Below, one piece after another: positions 8,377-55,461 of a DNA stretch of 64,000 nucleotides (position 1 is the stretch's first letter; each line of letters opens with the position of its first letter). The translations under genes and the position numbers were made by a program. The notes under the pieces were generated by a model, which searched no databases, had not been told where the DNA came from, and was given only the letters and a program-made list of their open reading frames with translations. This stretch comes from an uncultured Acidobacteriota bacterium (GTDB lineage: Bacteria; Acidobacteriota; Blastocatellia; RBC074), in the NCBI GenBank assembly GCA_963699175.1, contig OY969418.1, positions 7,325,352-7,389,351 on the forward strand, given 5' to 3'.

Positions 8377-10161
8377 CTAGGGAGTCTTTGCATCTAGCGC
8401 AACACGGAAACCAATATCGGAGTCACCTTTGTTGGATGGGAACCCAATACGAGTGGCGGAGCGGCAGTGGATAGATTTGGCACTCCACGCACCGCCACGC
8501 AGCACTATGTAGAGCACTAAGCTATTTGACTCTCCGCCGCTCGGCCAAGTTGAGCCATCGGTTGGCGCACCTTTATAGTTCTCATGCCAACCATCCTGGC
8601 ACCATTCCCACACATTGCCGTGCAGATCGTAAAGTCTGAAGCGATTCGGCAGTTTCTTTCCGACCGGATGCGTATTTTTTTCAGCGTTGTCAGCGAACCA
8701 AGCTATTGCATTAAGGTCGTCTGCATAATCGCCCGCACGGCAGGCATACTCCCATTCGGCCTCGCTGGGCAGACGATACGCCTTGCCGGTGTGCTGGCTG
8801 AGTCGCCTGCAAAACCTCGTGGCGTCCTCCCATGAGACCTGTTCGACCGGGCGATTGAGATCGCCTTTGAATTGGGACGGATTGTTGTCCATCACCGCTT
8901 GCCATAGCGCTTGCGTCACTTCGTGTTGGCCAATGTAAAAGTCAGAGAGAGTGACGGGGTGCTGGGGGTATTCGGCAATGTTGCCCTGTCCGTCGGGCGA
9001 ACCCATCTTGAACAAACCACCCGTCACACGGATCATTGTCAGATTGGCGCCATTGATCGGTTCGGTGAACTCCGGTCCGGTCGCGGGTCGCAGTTGCCCT
9101 TTTTCAGGCAACTCTCGTTCTTTAACCGGCTTTTGCCACAACCAATAGCCAATTCCCATCACCGCTTGTAACCCGACGAACACTAACGCCAGCAGCCACG
9201 ACCAGCGCGGTGCAGGACTGACGGCCTGTGCATTCATCGCAATCAGGCGCTTGTGGTACGGGGCAGCAGTATCAACAATGGGTGTGGATATTTCAGTCAT
9301 TGGTGTCAGGCAGAACGTCTGCGGCGAGGATTGCAGCTTGGTCACTGGCGGCGGCGCAATGTCAAGCTTAGGATACGTCAATGCAGCGCGTAACTCAGCA
9401 GCAGTGCGATAGCGCACCACTGCGTCCTTCTGCAACGATCTGGCGACGATCTCCTGCAACCATACAGGTACAGTGATTGGCAGAGGCTCCTGCTCTTCGT
9501 CGCGGATCGCGCCCATCAATTCGACCAGATCATGGCCTAAGAAGGGCAATTGTCCGCTCAGCAATTGGTACAATAGCACACCGACCGACCACAGATCAGT
9601 TTGTTCGTTCCGCTTACGCTGAAACGCTTCGGGAGCCATATAGACCGGTGTCCCAGCCATCACCACGCTATAACTATTAGATCTGAGCATCCGCGAAATG
9701 CCGAAATCGGCAATGCGTGGCGTCTCGCCCTGCAACAGGATGTTGGCCGGTTTCAGATCGCGGTGGATGATCTTGCGCGTGTGCAGGTATTCCAGCCCAG
9801 CCAGAATGCCGCGCGCCATCTCTACCGCGGCCTCGACCGAAGGCGCGCGTCCGCCGTGCCGTTTCAGCCACTCTTCCAGCGAACCATCGGGTGCGTACTC
9901 GCTGGCGATCACGACGTGCTCCCCGTACACACTGGCTTCAATAATCGGCAGCACGTTGGTGTGGCCGCTCGCGGCAATCCAGATGTCTGCTTCCTGCCGG
10001 ATGGCATCAAGGTCCAGGTCGTCGTCGAGCGGAATCTTTAGTGCGACCTCGCGGGCGGCCAGTGCCGTAATGTTCTGTGCCAACCAGACCTCGCCGAACG
10101 CGCCTTTGCCGAGTTTGCGGATGAGTTGATATGGGCCAATGCGGTCGTTGGCTTTAGGCAT
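8377..10161 (-). CDS. Ser/Thr protein kinase - TM - formylglycine-generating-enzyme (FGE/SUMF1) domain fusion
   Basis: N-terminal kinase: GKGAFGEV, HRDLKPANIL, DFG. One hydrophobic TM segment (WSWLLALVFVGLQAVMGIGYWLW). C-terminal FGE-sulfatase domain: YRLPSEAEWEYACRAG, NVWEWCQDGW, LRGGAWS. Confidence 0.85.
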   Translation of the reverse strand: MPKANDRIGPYQLIRKLGKGAFGEVWLAQNITALAAREVALKIPLDDDLDLDAIRQEADIWIAASGHTNVLPIIEASVYGEHVVIASEYAPDGSLEEWLKRHGGRAPSVEAAVEMARGILAGLEYLHTRKIIHRDLKPANILLQGETPRIADFGISRMLRSNSYSVVMAGTPVYMAPEAFQRKRNEQTDLWSVGVLLYQLLSGQLPFLGHDLVELMGAIRDEEQEPLPITVPVWLQEIVARSLQKDAVVRYRTAAELRAALTYPKLDIAPPPVTKLQSSPQTFCLTPMTEISTPIVDTAAPYHKRLIAMNAQAVSPAPRWSWLLALVFVGLQAVMGIGYWLWQKPVKERELPEKGQLRPATGPEFTEPINGANLTMIRVTGGLFKMGSPDGQGNIAEYPQHPVTLSDFYIGQHEVTQALWQAVMDNNPSQFKGDLNRPVEQVSWEDATRFCRRLSQHTGKAYRLPSEAEWEYACRAGDYADDLNAIAWFADNAEKNTHPVGKKLPNRFRLYDLHGNVWEWCQDGWHENYKGAPTDGSTWPSGGESNSLVLYIVLRGGAWSAKSIHCRSATRIGFPSNKGDSDIGFRVALDAKTP

Positions 10162-34067: not shown

Positions 34068-34280
34068 TCACGCTACGGCGCGATGGCCCTTGGGTTGTGG
34101 AATAGGGCGGTTCAATTCCTGCGCTGTTTCGATCCACTCTTGGATCACTACTTCGAGGTTTGCCAGCGCCTCTTGTCGCGTTATCCCGTCAGCCATACAG
34201 CCGGGCAATTCCGGCGCTTCGGCAAGGAACGCCTGATCCTCTTCGCTCCAGTAAATGTTGACCTCATAGTTATTCGTCAT
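34068..34280 (-). CDS. hicB: HicB-family antitoxin
   Basis: Start at MTNNYEVNIYWSEEDQAFLAEAPELPGCMADGITRQEAL (UPF0150/HicB N-domain pattern). Overlaps hicA by 11 nt. Confidence 0.75.
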   Translation of the reverse strand: MTNNYEVNIYWSEEDQAFLAEAPELPGCMADGITRQEALANLEVVIQEWIETAQELNRPIPQPKGHRAVA

Positions 34281-34545
34281 CTTTCCCCTCGCTTTCTGCA
34301 TTTGCGAGTTGATAACTCACAATGATATGGCGGACTTGTTTGACTTGGTAGGATTTGGCCTGAGCGCCTTTGGGTTGGAGGTTAAGAATTTCAACGACGT
34401 CGTCACGAGTGAAGATGTGATGATCGCCACGAATTCGTTCGGTAAAGCCGAGGCTTTTCAGCAAGCCGCACAACTCATCGAATGGAATGTTAGCATCCGC
34501 AGTGCCGCGCAGTATTTTCAGCAACAGCTTGTAGCGGCGTCCCAT
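34270..34545 (-). CDS. hicA: HicA-family toxin (mRNA interferase)
   Basis: 91 aa. LKSLGFTERIRGDHHIF...QAKSYQVKQV matches the HicA/YcfA pattern. Confidence 0.8.
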   Translation of the reverse strand: MGRRYKLLLKILRGTADANIPFDELCGLLKSLGFTERIRGDHHIFTRDDVVEILNLQPKGAQAKSYQVKQVRHIIVSYQLANAESEGKDDE

Positions 34546-34560
34546 AAGCTCAGTCTGTAA

Positions 34561-34725
34561 TCAATCGGGCCTTTCGTCGCTCAGCAACATTTGATAGGCG
34601 TCACGAATGTTGTCTTCCAACTCGGCTAGTGTCTCACCCTGACTGAAAACCCCAGGAACCTCTTTCAGCCGTCCTATATACCAGCCATCATCTTGCCAAT
34701 ATTCCAAAGTAAAGTGTCTCACCAT
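34561..34725 (-). CDS. second HicB-like (N-domain only) antitoxin-like protein, 54 aa
   Basis: Internal ATG with perfect SD AGGAGG. MVRHFTLEYWQDDGWYIGRLKEVPGVFSQGETLAELEDNIRDAY matches the HicB/UPF0150 fold pattern. Begins 17 nt after the BMC-P stop. Confidence 0.6.
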   Translation of the reverse strand: MVRHFTLEYWQDDGWYIGRLKEVPGVFSQGETLAELEDNIRDAYQMLLSDERPD

Positions 34726-34742
34726 AACTCCTCCTGCGAGAC

Positions 34743-35012
34743 TCAATCCGTCACTTCGACCGTATCAATAATCCCCACCACCGCCGCATCCACCGGACGA
34801 TCTTTCAACCCTTCGGCCAGGCGCGCGCTGCTGCCCGCCACAACCAGCACCTTTTCGCGAAAGCCCGCGCCGACAGTGTCAACCGCGACCAGATAGCTGC
34901 TCTCATCCTCGCCAGTCAGCGTGATGGGACGCACGAGCAGGAGCTTCTTGCCTTCCAAGCGCGGGTCTTTGCGCGTGGCGACGACATTACCGATGATGCG
35001 ACCGATGATCAT
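34743..35012 (-). CDS. bacterial microcompartment vertex protein (BMC-P; EutN/CcmL/PduN family)
   Basis: Start at MIIGRIIGNVVATRKDPRLEGKKLLLV...VAVDTVGAG...VLVVAGSSAR...VDAAVVGIID, the canonical PF03319 pattern. Confidence 0.9.
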   Translation of the reverse strand: MIIGRIIGNVVATRKDPRLEGKKLLLVRPITLTGEDESSYLVAVDTVGAGFREKVLVVAGSSARLAEGLKDRPVDAAVVGIIDTVEVTD

Positions 35013-35613: not shown

Positions 35614-36399
35614 TTAACGGCTCAAGAGCCGGGCCATTTCAGTCAATAGCTGGATCAACTCCTCGCGCGTCAATGATACCGCCCCGTCGTTCAGCCGTCC
35701 CACTGCTCCGACGCCGCTGCCGCAAACCTGTCCGGTGCGTGCTTCAACGGGCATCACGCCGTTGCGTTCGCGAATCTCGAAGAGCTTCGGAATTGCATAA
35801 TCAGGAATCGTATTTTCGTTGCCCAGCGTGCGCGCAATGAAGCTGATCTTGCAGGTGTGTTCGAGCGTTTCCAGCTTGTTGAACGCCTTCTCCAACGTGT
35901 CGGCGTAAGCCACTGCGCCGTGATTCGCCATCAACAGCGCATCGTGATATTGCAGAAACGGCTCAATCGCATCGGTCAATTCGCGCGTCGAAGGTGTCCC
36001 GTAAGCCGCCAGTGGCACACAACCCAGCGTCAACACGACCTCGGACAAGATAGCTTTACTCAGCGACAAGCCCGCTACGGCGAAGCCCGTTGCGTGCGGC
36101 GGATGCGCGTGTACGACGGCGTGAATGTCAGGCCGCTGTTCATAAATCACGCGATGCATCGGCCATTCGGAAGAGACTGTATAGGCAGACGGCTCGAGCG
36201 CATTGCCAGCCAGATCAACTACACACATCATCTCCGGCTTCATCCAACCTTTGCTCACGCCCGACGGCGTCGCGATCAGGCGATTCTCGCCGACGCGCAC
36301 GCTGATATTGCCATCGCCTGCGACTAGCAGTCCACGGTCGTAACAGCGCGTGGCGATCTCGACAATCTCTACTTTGACTTTCTGCTCATCAACCATCAT
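35614..36399 (-). CDS. class II aldolase (FucA/RhaD family) with C-terminal encapsulation-peptide-like extension
   Basis: Start at MMVDEQ. GDGNISVR and VVHAHPPHATGFA metal-binding motifs. About 45-aa C-terminal tail: Gly/Ser-rich linker (GQVCGSGVGAVGRLNDGAVS) plus amphipathic helix LTREELIQLLTEMARLL. Confidence 0.85.
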   Translation of the reverse strand: MMVDEQKVKVEIVEIATRCYDRGLLVAGDGNISVRVGENRLIATPSGVSKGWMKPEMMCVVDLAGNALEPSAYTVSSEWPMHRVIYEQRPDIHAVVHAHPPHATGFAVAGLSLSKAILSEVVLTLGCVPLAAYGTPSTRELTDAIEPFLQYHDALLMANHGAVAYADTLEKAFNKLETLEHTCKISFIARTLGNENTIPDYAIPKLFEIRERNGVMPVEARTGQVCGSGVGAVGRLNDGAVSLTREELIQLLTEMARLLSR

Positions 36400-36415
36400 C
36401 AACCATCTGGCAATC

Positions 36416-37117
36416 TCAAAGCGCCTGACCATTCTCTGCGCTGGCAAACCGAAATAGATCGAGGTGATTGACCGTTACGGCCTCCTCGCTCGGATGCGCC
36501 AGGAAATAAGAAAGGCTTTCCAACGAGACCGACAAGTCAACGTTCTTCACCTTCACGCCCGGCTTTGGGTTGAGCACGATGGGGGCGAAGTTGAGCACGG
36601 CCTTGATGCCCGCTTCGGTCACGCGGTCTAGTACTTGTTGTGCGGCAAAGGCAGGCACGGCAATCAAGACGATCTCAATTGTTTCGCGCTCGATAACTTC
36701 GGGCAGCCGCTCGGTCGAAAGAATCTCCAAGCCGTTGGCCGCGCGCGTCCCGATCTTGCTCGGCTCGTCGTCAAAGAGCGCCACCAGGCGGAAAGCAGCG
36801 CGATTGAAGCCCTGATATTTTGCCAACGCCAAGCCCAGATTGCCGACGCCGACGATGGCGATGCGCCGCTCGACGTTCAAGCCTAGGATCTGTTGCAAGT
36901 GTCGGCGCAGTTCTTTGACGTAATAGCCCACGCCGCGCACGCCGAATTCGCCGAAGTAGGCCAGGTCTTTGCGGATTTGCGCCGAATTCAAATTGAACTG
37001 TTCGGCCAACGTCTGCGACGAAACCGTCTCGATGCCTGCGCTTTCCAATTCGCTCAAACAGCGCAGGTAGACTGAAAGGCGATTGGTGGTGAGTTCCGAA
37101 ATCTTCTCTGTCTTCAT
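36416..37117 (-). CDS. rex: redox-sensing transcriptional repressor Rex
   Basis: Start at MKTEKISELTTNRLSVYLRCL (wHTH). Rossmann IAIVGVGNLGLAL. Overall Rex layout (about 230 aa). Confidence 0.85.
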   Translation of the reverse strand: MKTEKISELTTNRLSVYLRCLSELESAGIETVSSQTLAEQFNLNSAQIRKDLAYFGEFGVRGVGYYVKELRRHLQQILGLNVERRIAIVGVGNLGLALAKYQGFNRAAFRLVALFDDEPSKIGTRAANGLEILSTERLPEVIERETIEIVLIAVPAFAAQQVLDRVTEAGIKAVLNFAPIVLNPKPGVKVKNVDLSVSLESLSYFLAHPSEEAVTVNHLDLFRFASAENGQAL

Positions 37118-37335
37118 CTGGGGATTGCTATGCGGTGCTTCGATCAAATGCTTTAGAGTCTGCTCTATTAAACGAGCAGCAACGATAACGCAGGCTCAAC
37201 AAGACTGTCAACGCGCTGTTCTGACGGCCTTTCTGTGCAAGGCTGAAGTGCAAATTGACAGCTTGTGTAGGCGCTGCGTAAACTCCGAAGGCGGTTGTCC
37301 GTGACATCTTTGACGGACGGCGAACAGGAGCAGCA

Positions 37336-37950: not shown

Positions 37951-39416
37951 GTGGGAGCACGCATGATGTCACCAGGCTACAAATGGAAACCCATCGAAGA
38001 TTTGCCGGAGGATTGGCCAAAACTCGCTTCTAGCGAATTGGCCGGTCTGTTTGCTGTCTGGAAAGAGCAAGCCGTGCAGTTGAAAGACTCGCCTGCCTAT
38101 CGAGAATTTCAGGTGCGCTTGCGTCGTGAATGGGCCATTGAAACTGGCATTATCGAAGGGCTGTACGACATTGATCGCGGGGTCACGCGCACTTTGATCG
38201 AGCGCGGATTGCACGCTAGCCTCATTGCGCACGGCGACGCCAACAAACCGGCGGAAGAGATCATTCCCATGCTCAAAGATCACGAAATGGTGGTCGAAGG
38301 GCTGTTTGATTTCGTTGGCCAGCAACGCCAGCTCTCGACCTCATACATCAAGCAAGTTCACCAAGCTCTAACCACCCATCAGGAGACTGCCAAAGGTATA
38401 GACAGTTTGGGACAGCCCACGCAAATTCCGTTGCTTCGTGGCGATTGGAAAAAGTGGCCTAACAACCCGACACGGCCTGATGGCAAAGTCCACGAGTTTT
38501 GCCCACCTGAACAAGTTGCATCCGAGATGGATCGTCTGATTGAAACGCATCAGCAGCATTTGCAAGCAGGCGTTCCGCCAGAAGTGGAGGCCGCATGGCT
38601 CCATCATCGCTTTACGCAAATTCACCCGTTTCAAGATGGGAATGGACGTGTGGCGCGGGCGCTGGCGTCGCTGATCTTTATTCGTGCTGAGTGGTTTCCT
38701 TTTGTTGTTCACCGTGACGACCGTGCTGATTATATTGATTGCTTGGAAAAAGCGGACGCCAGGGACATGACCTCATTAGTGAAGCTAGTGGGCCAAAGCC
38801 AAAGGAAAGCATTCAATCAGGCTATCAAGCTATCAGATAACGTGTTGTTGCCTGCTGATTCTGTTGAGCAAATTATTTTTGCTGGTGGGCGTTATTTGAA
38901 AGAGAAAGTGGAGAATCAACGGCTACTCGCTGAAGAACTCAAAAGGCTCCACGCTCAATATAAACATGTTGCTGAAACTCTTCAGGCGACTACCAATGAA
39001 CGGTTTGATAAACTTGTCGGCGATTTTGACAACCTCTTGCGTGAGTCTGGCAGCCAGCAGACGATTCGTATAGAAAAATATGGTTATGGATTTGGGCCAA
39101 TGTCCAAAGCGACTTTTGACCATGCAAATGCCAGCATCACAAAGCAATTAGGTTGTGATGCTGATATATGGTCGGATGGCTGGGGCTGTTCCATCCGTAT
39201 AGGAGATAGCATTGGAATGCACTTCGGCTTTTATCGGTTGCTCAACTCAGATTGGCGGATTGCCTGTGGGTTAGCTTACCTGAGAGCAACTAATCCTGAG
39301 CAGTTTTTCCCACTGTGCAGTGAAGCATTTCAATGCTCAACTAGCGAGGATTTGACAACCGTCGTCCCTCGCTTCAAGCAATGGCTTGAGGATGCGCTGA
39401 TCCTCGGCTTTGACTA

Positions 39417-39435
<19 letters not shown>
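37951..39435 (+). CDS. Fic/DOC-family protein (class II-like, with N-terminal inhibitory motif) plus about 250-aa C-terminal domain of unknown function
   Basis: Fic motif [14 protein letters not shown]. Inhibitory (S/T)xxxE(G/N) motif as TGIIEG near residue 70. Markedly AT-richer than flanks. Inserted between ruvA and ruvB. Confidence 0.85.
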
Positions 39436-53719: not shown

Positions 53720-53859
53720 GCGTGGGAATGGCCTCGGCAGGGTGGATTTGAAGACTGCTGCGATTGCAAGTTGAAGATTGGTCTTTATAATTTGCAGCCG
53801 GTTGGTTGTGTACATTCACCCATTGATTGCACCATATTGATTGCCGAGGAAGCGACTTC

Positions 53860-55461
53860 ATGCCATCTCCCAACGCGAAAGTGCCGAAAGTTTTTATCAG
53901 CTATAGCCACGATTCGCACGTGCAGCTTGACCGCGTGCTGGCGCTGGCCGACCGGCTGCGCGCAGAAGGGATTGATTGCAACCTTGATCAATATGAATCC
54001 ACGCAGCCGCAACGCTGGCCAAGTTGGATGAACGAACAGTTCCGTGCCGCTGATTTCATCCTGGTTGTCTGTACTGAGATTTATTGCCGTCGCTTCGAGG
54101 GGCGTGAAGAGTCGGGCAAAGGCATGGGCGCGAAATGGGAAGGCGCAATCATTACCAGCGAATTGTACCGGGATGAAACGCTCAATCGGCGCTTCATCCC
54201 AATTATCTTTGCTGCCGAAGATGCCGCACAAGTGCCGGAACAATTGCGGGATTACACGCGCTATCTGGTGACGGACGAGCAGGGCTACGAAGCGCTTTAC
54301 CGACGCCTGACCAAGCAGCCGCGCGTGGTCAAACCGCCGCTCGGACAGGTGCAGACATTCGAGCCGGTCAATAAGCTGAACGCCTTGCCCGACGAGAACC
54401 GGCAACAGGAGTTTCCAGTGATTGAAGCGGAAGTCGCTCACCCATCTTCACATCAGAGTGTCGCCACACTCACTCCATCGCTAGTTACTGAACCTGTTAG
54501 AGCGCCAGTCAAAGAACCGGAGACGCCCTGGCAAGAACAACACGACAAGGTTGAAGTGAAGAACCCAACCCGTCAGCTAGCGCCACTAAGCAGCCGGCGC
54601 AGAAGACTGATCTTAGCAAGCGGCGTATTGGTGATGGGGTTGGCAATCGCAGTAGCTTCCAGCCTGTTGTACAAAAGCAATTCGGTTGTGACTGACAATC
54701 GCAGCCCGACGCCGACAGTTGCCTCACCCAGCCCAGTGGCCAAAGCGACTTTGCGATCATTCACTGCTGATCTCGGCAACGGCGTGAAGCTGGAGATAGT
54801 CGCGTTGCCAGGCGGCACGTTTGAGATGGGGTCGGACAATGGCACGATTGATGAGAAGCCGAAACACAAAGTGACGCTCTCACCCTTTGCCATCGGCAAA
54901 TACGAAGTGACGCAGGCGCAGTGGCAAGCCGTGATGGGCAACAATCCGAGCTACTTCAAAGGCGATAACTTGCCGGTGGAAAGAGTTTCGTGGCTCAATG
55001 TCCAAAAGTTTATTGAGAGGCTCAAGCTCAAGACCGGCAACCAGACTTATTGCTTGCCGACCGAAGCCGAGTGGGAGTACGCGGCGCGCGCCGGTTCGAC
55101 CGGCAAGTACAGCTTCGGCGACGATGCAGCCAAGCTCGGCGAGTATGCTTGGTTTAGGGGAAACTCCGGCGCCAAGACGCATCCCGTTGGGCTAAAGAAG
55201 CCAAACGATTGGGGCTTATATGATATGCAGGGCAATGTATCGGAGTGGTGCCAGGATTGGTACAGCAAGGATTACTACGAGCAAAGTGTGAACAGCACTA
55301 ATCCGCGAGGGCCATCATCAGGCGAGTATCGCGTCCTGCGTGGCGGCCCGTGGTTCATCAACATTGATGATGCGCGCCCCGTCTACCGCGGCTTCTACAA
55401 TCCCGGCGACCGCGACATCAGTGTGGGTTTTCGGGTGGTGGTGGCGCGTTCTCCTTCCTGA
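53860..55461 (+). CDS. TIR-domain - TM - FGE/SUMF1-domain protein (receptor-like architecture)
   Basis: Start ATG 53860 with SD GAGGAAG. N-terminal KVFISYSHDS...FILVVCTE (TIR_2-like). One TM (LILASGVLVMGLAIAVASSLLY). C-terminal FGE domain (YCLPTEAEWEYAARAG, NVSEWCQDWY, LRGGPW). Confidence 0.8.
   Translation: MPSPNAKVPKVFISYSHDSHVQLDRVLALADRLRAEGIDCNLDQYESTQPQRWPSWMNEQFRAADFILVVCTEIYCRRFEGREESGKGMGAKWEGAIITSELYRDETLNRRFIPIIFAAEDAAQVPEQLRDYTRYLVTDEQGYEALYRRLTKQPRVVKPPLGQVQTFEPVNKLNALPDENRQQEFPVIEAEVAHPSSHQSVATLTPSLVTEPVRAPVKEPETPWQEQHDKVEVKNPTRQLAPLSSRRRRLILASGVLVMGLAIAVASSLLYKSNSVVTDNRSPTPTVASPSPVAKATLRSFTADLGNGVKLEIVALPGGTFEMGSDNGTIDEKPKHKVTLSPFAIGKYEVTQAQWQAVMGNNPSYFKGDNLPVERVSWLNVQKFIERLKLKTGNQTYCLPTEAEWEYAARAGSTGKYSFGDDAAKLGEYAWFRGNSGAKTHPVGLKKPNDWGLYDMQGNVSEWCQDWYSKDYYEQSVNSTNPRGPSSGEYRVLRGGPWFINIDDARPVYRGFYNPGDRDISVGFRVVVARSPS

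Follow-up and report, generated by a model that had tools for sequence, protein, structure and literature searches.

Encapsulation peptides (EPs) of bacterial microcompartments (BMCs) have been defined at the sequence level as predicted amphipathic helices of 15-20 amino acids that occur on microcompartment-associated homologues of a protein and not on the others (Kinney 2012; Aussignargues et al. 2015, PMC4594438). According to the latter, a C-terminal EP of approximately 17 amino acids is carried by 21 of 23 BMC-associated class II aldolases, from loci of the PVM, PVM-like, and GRM5 types. The ACI microcompartment is exclusive to Acidobacteria, mainly subdivisions 4 and 6, and its main locus encodes a class II aldolase (pfam00596) that carries an EP at its C-terminus, a triplet of BMC-P shell proteins, a 2-hydroxyacid dehydrogenase (pfam00389/02826), and small proteins, including one of approximately 80 amino acids with Cys and an EP; an aldehyde dehydrogenase with an EP is encoded on a satellite locus (Sutter et al. 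2021, PMC8217296). This paper describes a class II (metal-dependent, FucA-like) aldolase gene and its neighbouring shell genes in a stretch of 64,000 nucleotides, hereafter the window, from an uncultured Acidobacteriota bacterium of the class Blastocatellia (GCA_963699175.1, contig OY969418.1, positions 7,325,352 to 7,389,351). A preliminary description had proposed that this aldolase carries a C-terminal EP, and the analysis supports that interpretation: the last approximately 35 residues very probably constitute an EP, of which the helix, on its flexible tether, would attach to the inside of the shell and may cluster the enzyme, such that the aldolase would become enclosed. The aldolase EP has been known for the ACI family since 2021, and the confirmed observation is a correct rediscovery in which a cargo-targeting signal was spotted from sequence alone.

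The aldolase EPs from PVM, PVM-like, and GRM5 loci have the enzyme family, the terminus, the helix length (approximately 17 amino acids), and the poorly conserved linker in common with the window aldolase (PMC4594438). Their linkers span 23-81 amino acids, versus approximately 15 in the window and 14-71 among its 118 aligned homologues, which makes the tether of the window aldolase a shorter one. Moreover, the helix motif of the window is specific to the ACI branch, unlike that of the PVM, PVM-like, and GRM5 aldolases, and the loci of the latter contain an aldehyde dehydrogenase and other core enzymes, whereas the window does not. The same principle, in which cargo is directed to the shell by a short amphipathic helix at the end of a flexible linker, underlies the EPs at the N-terminus of PduP, PduD, and EutC and at the C-terminus of CcmN, and PduP-type extensions were shown experimentally to be sufficient for the targeting of foreign proteins (summarised in PMC4594438). 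These peptides are carried by other host proteins, in the case of Pdu and Eut at the other terminus, and have no sequence homology to the tail described here; their targeting has been tested, whereas that of the window aldolase is read from its sequence.

The window locus is a reduced form of the Acidobacteria-specific ACI microcompartment locus. Its host belongs to the same phylum, within the class Blastocatellia (subdivision 4), and the same pfam00596 enzyme with a predicted C-terminal EP is followed by genes for BMC-H and BMC-P shell proteins in the same order. The LTRxEL..L helix is common to the window aldolase and the aldolases of Vicinamibacterales, and the one such locus that was retrieved (aldolase P0338, locus L085, 9719-13069) is canonical ACI, with the order YHS-domain small protein, aldolase, BMC-H, three BMC-P, and 2-hydroxyacid dehydrogenase. 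Compared with this canonical form, the window and 75 related Blastocatellia loci have a single BMC-P gene, no hydroxyacid dehydrogenase, no YHS protein, and a gene for a Rex-type redox-sensing repressor directly upstream. In the window, the BMC-P triplet is absent, and neither a 2-hydroxyacid dehydrogenase nor the small Cys- and EP-containing protein was detected with Pfam among the locus genes and nearly all open reading frames (ORFs) of at least 200 amino acids. An intermediate ACI form also exists, in which the locus of aldolase P0274 has two BMC-P genes and no dehydrogenase. The window BMC-P is closest to the first member of the canonical triplet (59% identity, versus 48% and 49% for the other two). 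Neither the reduced locus form nor the link with Rex was found in the available parts of the catalogue text and supplement of Sutter et al. 2021, and the family table, as far as available, does not mention Rex (PF06971/PF02629). The reduced Blastocatellia form, consisting of Rex, aldolase, sometimes an ORF of 60-80 amino acids, BMC-H, and one BMC-P, may be mildly new, and it is the only part of the present findings for which this may hold.

The aldolase gene (Table 1) is contained in a mechanically called ORF (35614..36447, minus strand; 277 amino acids) that opens at a TTG codon overlapping rex. Since homologues begin with MVDEQK or, more generally, M(V/I)DEQK, translation almost certainly begins with the ATG at 36399 or with the one at 36396, which would yield a protein of 261 or 260 amino acids; residues are counted here from the ATG at 36399. 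The Pfam domain Aldolase_II is recognised with an E-value of 5.7e-48 (residues 27-201 of the 277-amino-acid ORF), and the best solved relative by sequence is Streptococcus pneumoniae FucA (4c24; 217 amino acids), with residues 7-204 of the query aligning to residues 8-204. FucA of E. coli and S. pneumoniae (1fua, 4c24) and the Bacillus thuringiensis 5-deoxyribulose-1-phosphate aldolase (6btd) have the same fold, 27-32% identity, and the conserved His/His/His/Glu set; unlike the window protein, these enzymes of 203-217 amino acids have no linker or terminal helix, and they are cytosolic and unrelated to shells. An AlphaFold2 (AF2) model built from 118 homologues has a confident core and a mean predicted local distance difference test (pLDDT) score of 89, and Foldseek superpositions yielded target-normalised template modelling scores of 0.88-0.91 with FucA, DrdA (5-deoxyribulose-1-phosphate aldolase), and YgbL, spanning only approximately 204-215 columns of the 261. 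Because the Foldseek and FucA alignments stop near residue 204-215, the extension past the FucA-type core amounts to approximately 42-44 amino acids, in agreement with the extra segment of about 45 that had been described earlier. The choice of RhaD as a reference of about 215 amino acids was off; E. coli RhaD has approximately 274. In nucleotides, the segment 35614-35750 comprises the stop codon and the last 44 aldolase codons, with 2 nt in excess of a whole number of codons.

Conservation was assessed in two alignments, one of 20 close homologues and one of 118 close and distant homologues down to 39% identity. In the latter, H97, H99, H160, E78, S76/S77, G30/N31, and T44 are invariant or nearly so, and these residues align with the metal, catalytic, and phosphate-binding motifs of FucA. 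As the FucA-type residues for metal binding (three His), catalysis (Glu), and phosphate binding are conserved, the aldolase is probably enzymatically active. No equivalog cutoff of NCBIfam was reached (OxoTetrPhDc, 123 bits versus a cutoff of 250; FucA, 114 versus 264), and by these profile scores the aldolase is a distinct subfamily that is not placed in any NCBIfam substrate family. An annotation as microcompartment-targeted class II aldolase of ACI type would be preferable to 'L-fuculose-phosphate aldolase'. At the end of the core, E219, A220, R221, G223, Q224, and C226 are invariant among the 20 close homologues, and Cys226 is invariant in all 118 aligned sequences. Many of the more distant tailed aldolases (among them P0123, P0128, P0142, P0179, P0184, P0194, P0203, and P0236) contain a CxxCxxC cluster between core and helix, at the place that matches Cys226 (codon 35722-35724, minus strand) at the border of core and linker, which could be a metal or redox site. 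In the table of the 2015 review, Cys accounts for 5.5% of aldolase linker residues (PMC4594438).

Beyond the core, the product ends in VEARTGQVCGSGVGAVGRLNDGAVSLTREELIQLLTEMARLLSR, followed by the stop codon. Residues 229-237 have a pLDDT below 50 and no secondary structure in the AF2 model, and the linker is the least conserved region of the protein: the frequency of the top residue is 0.35 in the linker, versus 0.68 in the core and 0.61 in the helix, with an entropy of 2.7 bits and an enrichment of G, A, P, and D (118 sequences). The flexible linker put forward in the preliminary description is therefore retained for residues 227 to approximately 241, which are variable, whereas the first eight residues assigned to it (EARTGQVC) belong to the conserved motif that closes the core. 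The prediction with AlphaFold that had been suggested as a check yielded a disordered segment at 229-237 followed by a helix at 245-260. This helix was present in both AF2 runs, of which the first used a shallow alignment of 20 sequences and had a poor core (mean pLDDT 54), and the second was the rerun with 118 diverse sequences. Both peptide strings quoted for linker and helix are present in the translation; the helix string has 17 residues and not 18.

The family consensus of the helix, which is positioned at the very end of the protein, reads (I/V)241-x-L243-T244-R245-x-E247-L248-x-x-L251-(I/L)252-x-(D/E)254-(A/S)255-x-(R/K)257-x-L259. Among the 118 sequences, L248 is kept in all, T244 and L251 in 115, L243 in 113, and E247 in 108. 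In 78 distinct species sequences, codon differences relative to the window are exclusively synonymous at L251 (77 synonymous, 0 non-synonymous), L248 (54/0), and E247 (43/0); selection acts on the helix at the protein level. Its conserved hydrophobic residues recur with the spacing i, i+3/4, i+7, i+11 (248, 251/252, 255/256, and 259), and the conserved charged residues E247, D/E254, and R/K257 fall between them. The highest hydrophobic moment of any 15-residue segment in the whole protein (0.71) is that of residues 247-261, ELIQLLTEMARLLSR. A helix N-capping box has the pattern S/T-x-x-E, and T244 and E247 would fit it. The architecture of core, linker, and helix is kept in all 84 locus-derived aldolases (80 from species loci and four from metagenome contigs), as well as throughout the alignment of 118 sequences. 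When the 903 ORFs of the window were searched with a profile built from the tail helix, the aldolase was the only match (E=3e-7), and a second cargo protein with the same helix tag was not found among these ORFs.

The linkage of the tail to shell genes was evaluated by a scan of one genome per GTDB species, which yielded 80 loci with aldolase identities of 49-85%; those with meaningful names are all Blastocatellia or Acidobacteriota metagenome-assembled genomes. On the basis of 78-94% identity and a gene order held in common, the organism of the window belongs with them. Of 76 species loci with at least 450 nt of sequence downstream of the tailed aldolase gene, 75 have BMC-H and then BMC-P directly downstream. 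The order shared across the group is ruvBA (divergent), rex, aldolase, BMC-H, BMC-P, nadE, and pgsA. In a sub-group with approximately 50% aldolase identity, the genes for aldolase, BMC-H, and BMC-P are kept amid unrelated flanks, and three members also keep rex; since the module persists in unrelated surroundings, it is a unit and not merely inherited synteny. The GenBank titles of approximately 15 records among the 80 name Heliomicrobium or Heliobacteriaceae (including L005, L006, L012, L014, L015, L018, L023, L028, L033, L038, L047, L068, and L073) despite a syntenic locus of the Blastocatellia type, which looks like a taxonomic mislabel.

Relatives with and without the tail served as a control. 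Among the 150 nearest cluster representatives at 50% identity, 83 extend past the core by at least 25 residues and 67 by less than that, and many of the longer ones end in EP-like helices, such as DLVDRVIQEVLRLLQ and DLIELITREVRSAL. The closest tail-less clade (P0129, P0390, and P0391) consists of proteins of 216-221 amino acids that end exactly at the core boundary, with approximately 45-47% identity to the window aldolase and 60-64% to the tailed ACI aldolases of Vicinamibacterales, and that keep the whole core with all catalytic residues. The tail-less genes belong to a set of four, encoding a hexapeptide-repeat protein, the aldolase, a transaldolase/FSA, and an IclR regulator (L086, 5826-8139; L087, 2308-4622), and no BMC genes are present on the two tail-less contigs that were checked (9.2 kb and 5.0 kb). 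The tail accompanies shell genes, and relatives found without such genes lack it, which answers the question, raised in the preliminary description, of the same tail on aldolases outside BMC loci: the closest tail-less relatives lack both the tail and, on their contigs, the BMC genes. The encapsulated enzyme may have arisen from, or given rise to, the cytosolic enzyme of this four-gene set, which also hints that the substrate is a sugar phosphate.

Every sequence-level property of an EP is encountered in this tail, because the helix, the linker, and the association with shell genes all hold: the terminal block of 16-19 residues in the AF2 model is a short helix within the range of approximately 15-20, it is amphipathic (with a caveat on the full 17-mer that is discussed below), the linker is variable and flexible, and the tail is present with shell genes (75 of 76 tailed loci) and absent outside them (tail-less contigs without BMC genes). 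The EP architecture claimed earlier for this shell-adjacent aldolase is borne out to that extent. In the proposed mechanism, residues 227 to approximately 241 would act as a flexible, fast-evolving tether for the conserved amphipathic helix of approximately 16-19 residues (approximately 241-260), of which the hydrophobic face (L248, L251/L252, M255/A256, and L259) would dock on the inner face of the shell during assembly. The shell would be built from BMC-H and BMC-P, whose genes follow closely downstream after an intervening small ORF, the helix may also help to cluster aldolase molecules, and the aldolase would end up inside the microcompartment. There it would split a ketose-1-phosphate into dihydroxyacetone phosphate and a reactive aldehyde, which the shell would confine. 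The substrate is likely L-fuculose-, L-rhamnulose-, or 5-deoxyribulose-1-phosphate, and because the nearest characterised relatives cleave L-fuculose-1-phosphate or 5-deoxyribulose-1-phosphate, the products are probably dihydroxyacetone phosphate and lactaldehyde or acetaldehyde.

Several observations weigh against encapsulation by way of this tail. The hydrophobic moment of the quoted 17-mer is 0.38, a value reached by 21% of its shuffles (p ~0.21). Because the full 17-mer does not beat shuffles, the case for amphipathicity is built on the C-terminal 15 residues and the family pattern, and the amphipathic helix of the preliminary description holds for those and not for the 17-mer as a whole. 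Moreover, the helix is modelled with high AF2 confidence (approximately 90), a possible sign that it is packed against the enzyme and does not hang free. In one locus (L079, 1058-2464, on a contig of 2.5 kb), the tailed aldolase is followed by an ORF of 169 amino acids instead of BMC-H; this ORF appears to encode a secreted protein with a signal-peptide-like N-terminus, and it takes up the 585 nt available downstream. Finally, the window contains no aldehyde dehydrogenase (PF00171; Pfam, locus genes and nearly all ORFs of at least 200 amino acids) and only one BMC-H and one BMC-P gene, such that a complete pathway is not derivable from it. Further BMC-P genes and an aldehyde dehydrogenase may lie elsewhere in the genome.

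EPs also promote the aggregation of cargo, and FucA-type enzymes are tetramers. The helix might accordingly serve as glue between cargo molecules, through self-association of the aldolase or docking to other cargo, producing a condensate that is enclosed by the shell without direct binding to BMC-H. The four tails per tetramer could cross-link, and the helix is unusually well conserved for an EP, as expected for a specific partner; however, no other ORF in the window has a matching helix, the aldolase is the only obvious cargo gene in the reduced locus, and the strict adjacency is to shell genes, which leaves this explanation unlikely as a replacement for shell binding. It overlaps with the proposed EP function rather than excluding it. 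Considerably less probable is that the tail is a regulatory or catalytic arm of the aldolase, much as E. coli FucA has a mobile C-terminal tail to close its active site, or an additional oligomerisation helix, and that its linkage to the shell genes is incidental. The invariant E-A-R-x-G-Q-x-C preceding the linker, as well as the AF2 confidence of the helix, which fits docking on the enzyme, speak for such an arm, but an unconserved linker of 14-71 residues is poorly suited to reach a fixed site. Moreover, the tail-less relatives at 45-64% identity retain the full core and the catalytic residues, and the tail tracks shell genes and is missing from relatives found without them.

Bacterial membrane-targeting sequences, such as those of MinD and FtsA, likewise consist of an amphipathic helix at the C-terminus that is preceded by a flexible linker, and a tail of this kind could in principle anchor the aldolase to the cytoplasmic membrane. 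The polar face of the helix, however, is acidic or mixed (E247, E/D253-254, and a single R/K257) and not of the typical basic kind, and the gene is linked to those of shell proteins; furthermore, the literature assigns this type of tail to encapsulation (PMC8217296 and PMC4594438). Membrane anchoring is thus very improbable. An artefactual extension, arising from read-through past a lost stop codon or from a frame error and either untranslated or without function, has a negligible probability and is refuted by the recurrence of the same extension across 84 loci and hundreds of database proteins, by its conservation, and by the exclusively synonymous codon changes in the helix; nothing was found in favour of an artefact. 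When the variability of the linker, the acidic polar face, the shell-gene linkage, or the codon pattern is considered, each of these explanations fits less well than a C-terminal EP that targets the aldolase to the shell.

Table 1. Positions, within the window, of the aldolase, its segments, and the adjacent genes and sites.
Feature	Position	Strand	Remarks
Class II (FucA-like) aldolase gene	35614..36399	minus	261 amino acids plus stop
Catalytic core, residues 1-226	35722..36399	minus	FucA alignment ends near 204-215; closes with E-A-R-x-G-Q-x-C
Variable, predicted flexible linker, residues 227-240 (to ~241), GSGVGAVGRLNDGA	35680..35721	minus	AF2 and homologue alignment
Predicted encapsulation-peptide helix block, residues 241-260, VSLTREELIQLLTEMARLLS	35620..35679	minus	Translation, AF2, and conservation
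Small ORF between aldolase and BMC-H, 66 amino acids	35391..35591	minus	Sub-clade only
BMC-H (hexamer) shell protein, 95 amino acids	35088..35375	minus	KAAN and PRPH interface motifs, read in translation
BMC-P (pentamer, vertex) shell protein, 89 amino acids from ATG	34743..35012	minus	Pfam EutN_CcmL, E=8e-31
Rex-type redox-sensing repressor gene	36416..37147	minus	Stop 16-19 nt upstream of aldolase start
Sigma-70-like promoter match TTGACA-18-TATCGT upstream of rex	37182..37211	minus	Consensus scan, 10/12 positions

The shell gene products were assigned by profile matches: BMC-H matched the Pfam BMC domain with an E-value of 3.3e-31 and the EutM-type NCBIfam model with 148.9 bits (cutoff 133), and its identity across related loci is 84-98%. 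No second BMC-H or BMC-P was detected in the 64-kb window by tblastn. In each of the 75 related loci, exactly one BMC-P is present within 10 kb on either side, and since the same tblastn query detects all three paralogues in L085, this single-gene result is real within 10 kb. The small ORF between aldolase and BMC-H has no Pfam or NCBIfam match and no amphipathic terminal helix. Its homologues, of approximately 59-80 amino acids and with the pattern W-x-W-T-H-x-x-(D/E/N)-G...V-T-G-Y-E, are encoded at this position in 11 of the 80 species loci. Its identification as the small Cys-rich YHS-domain protein of canonical ACI loci was ruled out, as there is no similarity.

The repressor gene is identified by NCBIfam models scoring above their cutoffs (260 bits versus 126) and by the Pfam domains Put_DNA-bind_N and CoA_binding, and it is located directly upstream of the aldolase in 66-67 of the 75 related loci, some of which have flanking genes that are unrelated. 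The promoter match upstream of rex is a possible, weak candidate for transcription of rex, aldolase, small ORF, BMC-H, and BMC-P as one unit, and no terminator-like site was found on the minus strand between rex and BMC-P. The Rex operator TTGTGAA-N4-6-TTCACAA is absent near the locus, and in 66 upstream regions it is not enriched over shuffles; the sole recurring palindrome in these regions is a pair of divergent TTGACA -35 boxes. As no canonical Rex operator was found upstream, gene adjacency is the evidence for a regulatory link, and Rex may be only a syntenic neighbour of the aldolase module. A search of the literature returned nothing that links Rex to microcompartments. It is a tentative and rather doubtful proposition that the ACI organelle of Blastocatellia has been pared down to a Rex-linked module of an EP-tagged aldolase, one BMC-H, a single BMC-P, and sometimes an ORF of 60-80 amino acids. 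If true, the reduced module would rank among the smallest microcompartment loci in nature, and its expression would depend on the NADH/NAD+ ratio. Acidobacteria abound in soil, and a short, conserved helix motif combined with one hexamer and one pentamer gene would provide an attractive minimal natural system for the study and engineering of cargo loading.

The flanks of the module contain ruvA, which is divergent and upstream of rex, and, beyond BMC-P, three HicA/HicB-like genes followed by nadE. These three toxin-antitoxin-like genes (HicB-like, HicA, and HicB-like; 34068-34746, minus strand) are located between BMC-P and nadE, a gap of only 20-60 nt in many related loci that contains other inserts elsewhere, for example Transposase_31 and DUF4351 in L003, and that appears to be an insertion hot spot. 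On the other side, a Fic-domain gene of 494 amino acids (37951-39435, plus strand) is located between ruvA and ruvB, which are adjacent in many related loci, and overlaps the start of ruvB by 19 nt. At a larger distance, the window encodes two proteins (8377-10161, minus strand; 53827-55461, plus strand) that combine a C-terminal FGE-sulfatase (formylglycine-generating-enzyme-like) domain with a signalling domain, which is a Ser/Thr kinase in one protein and a TIR/SEFIR domain in the other.

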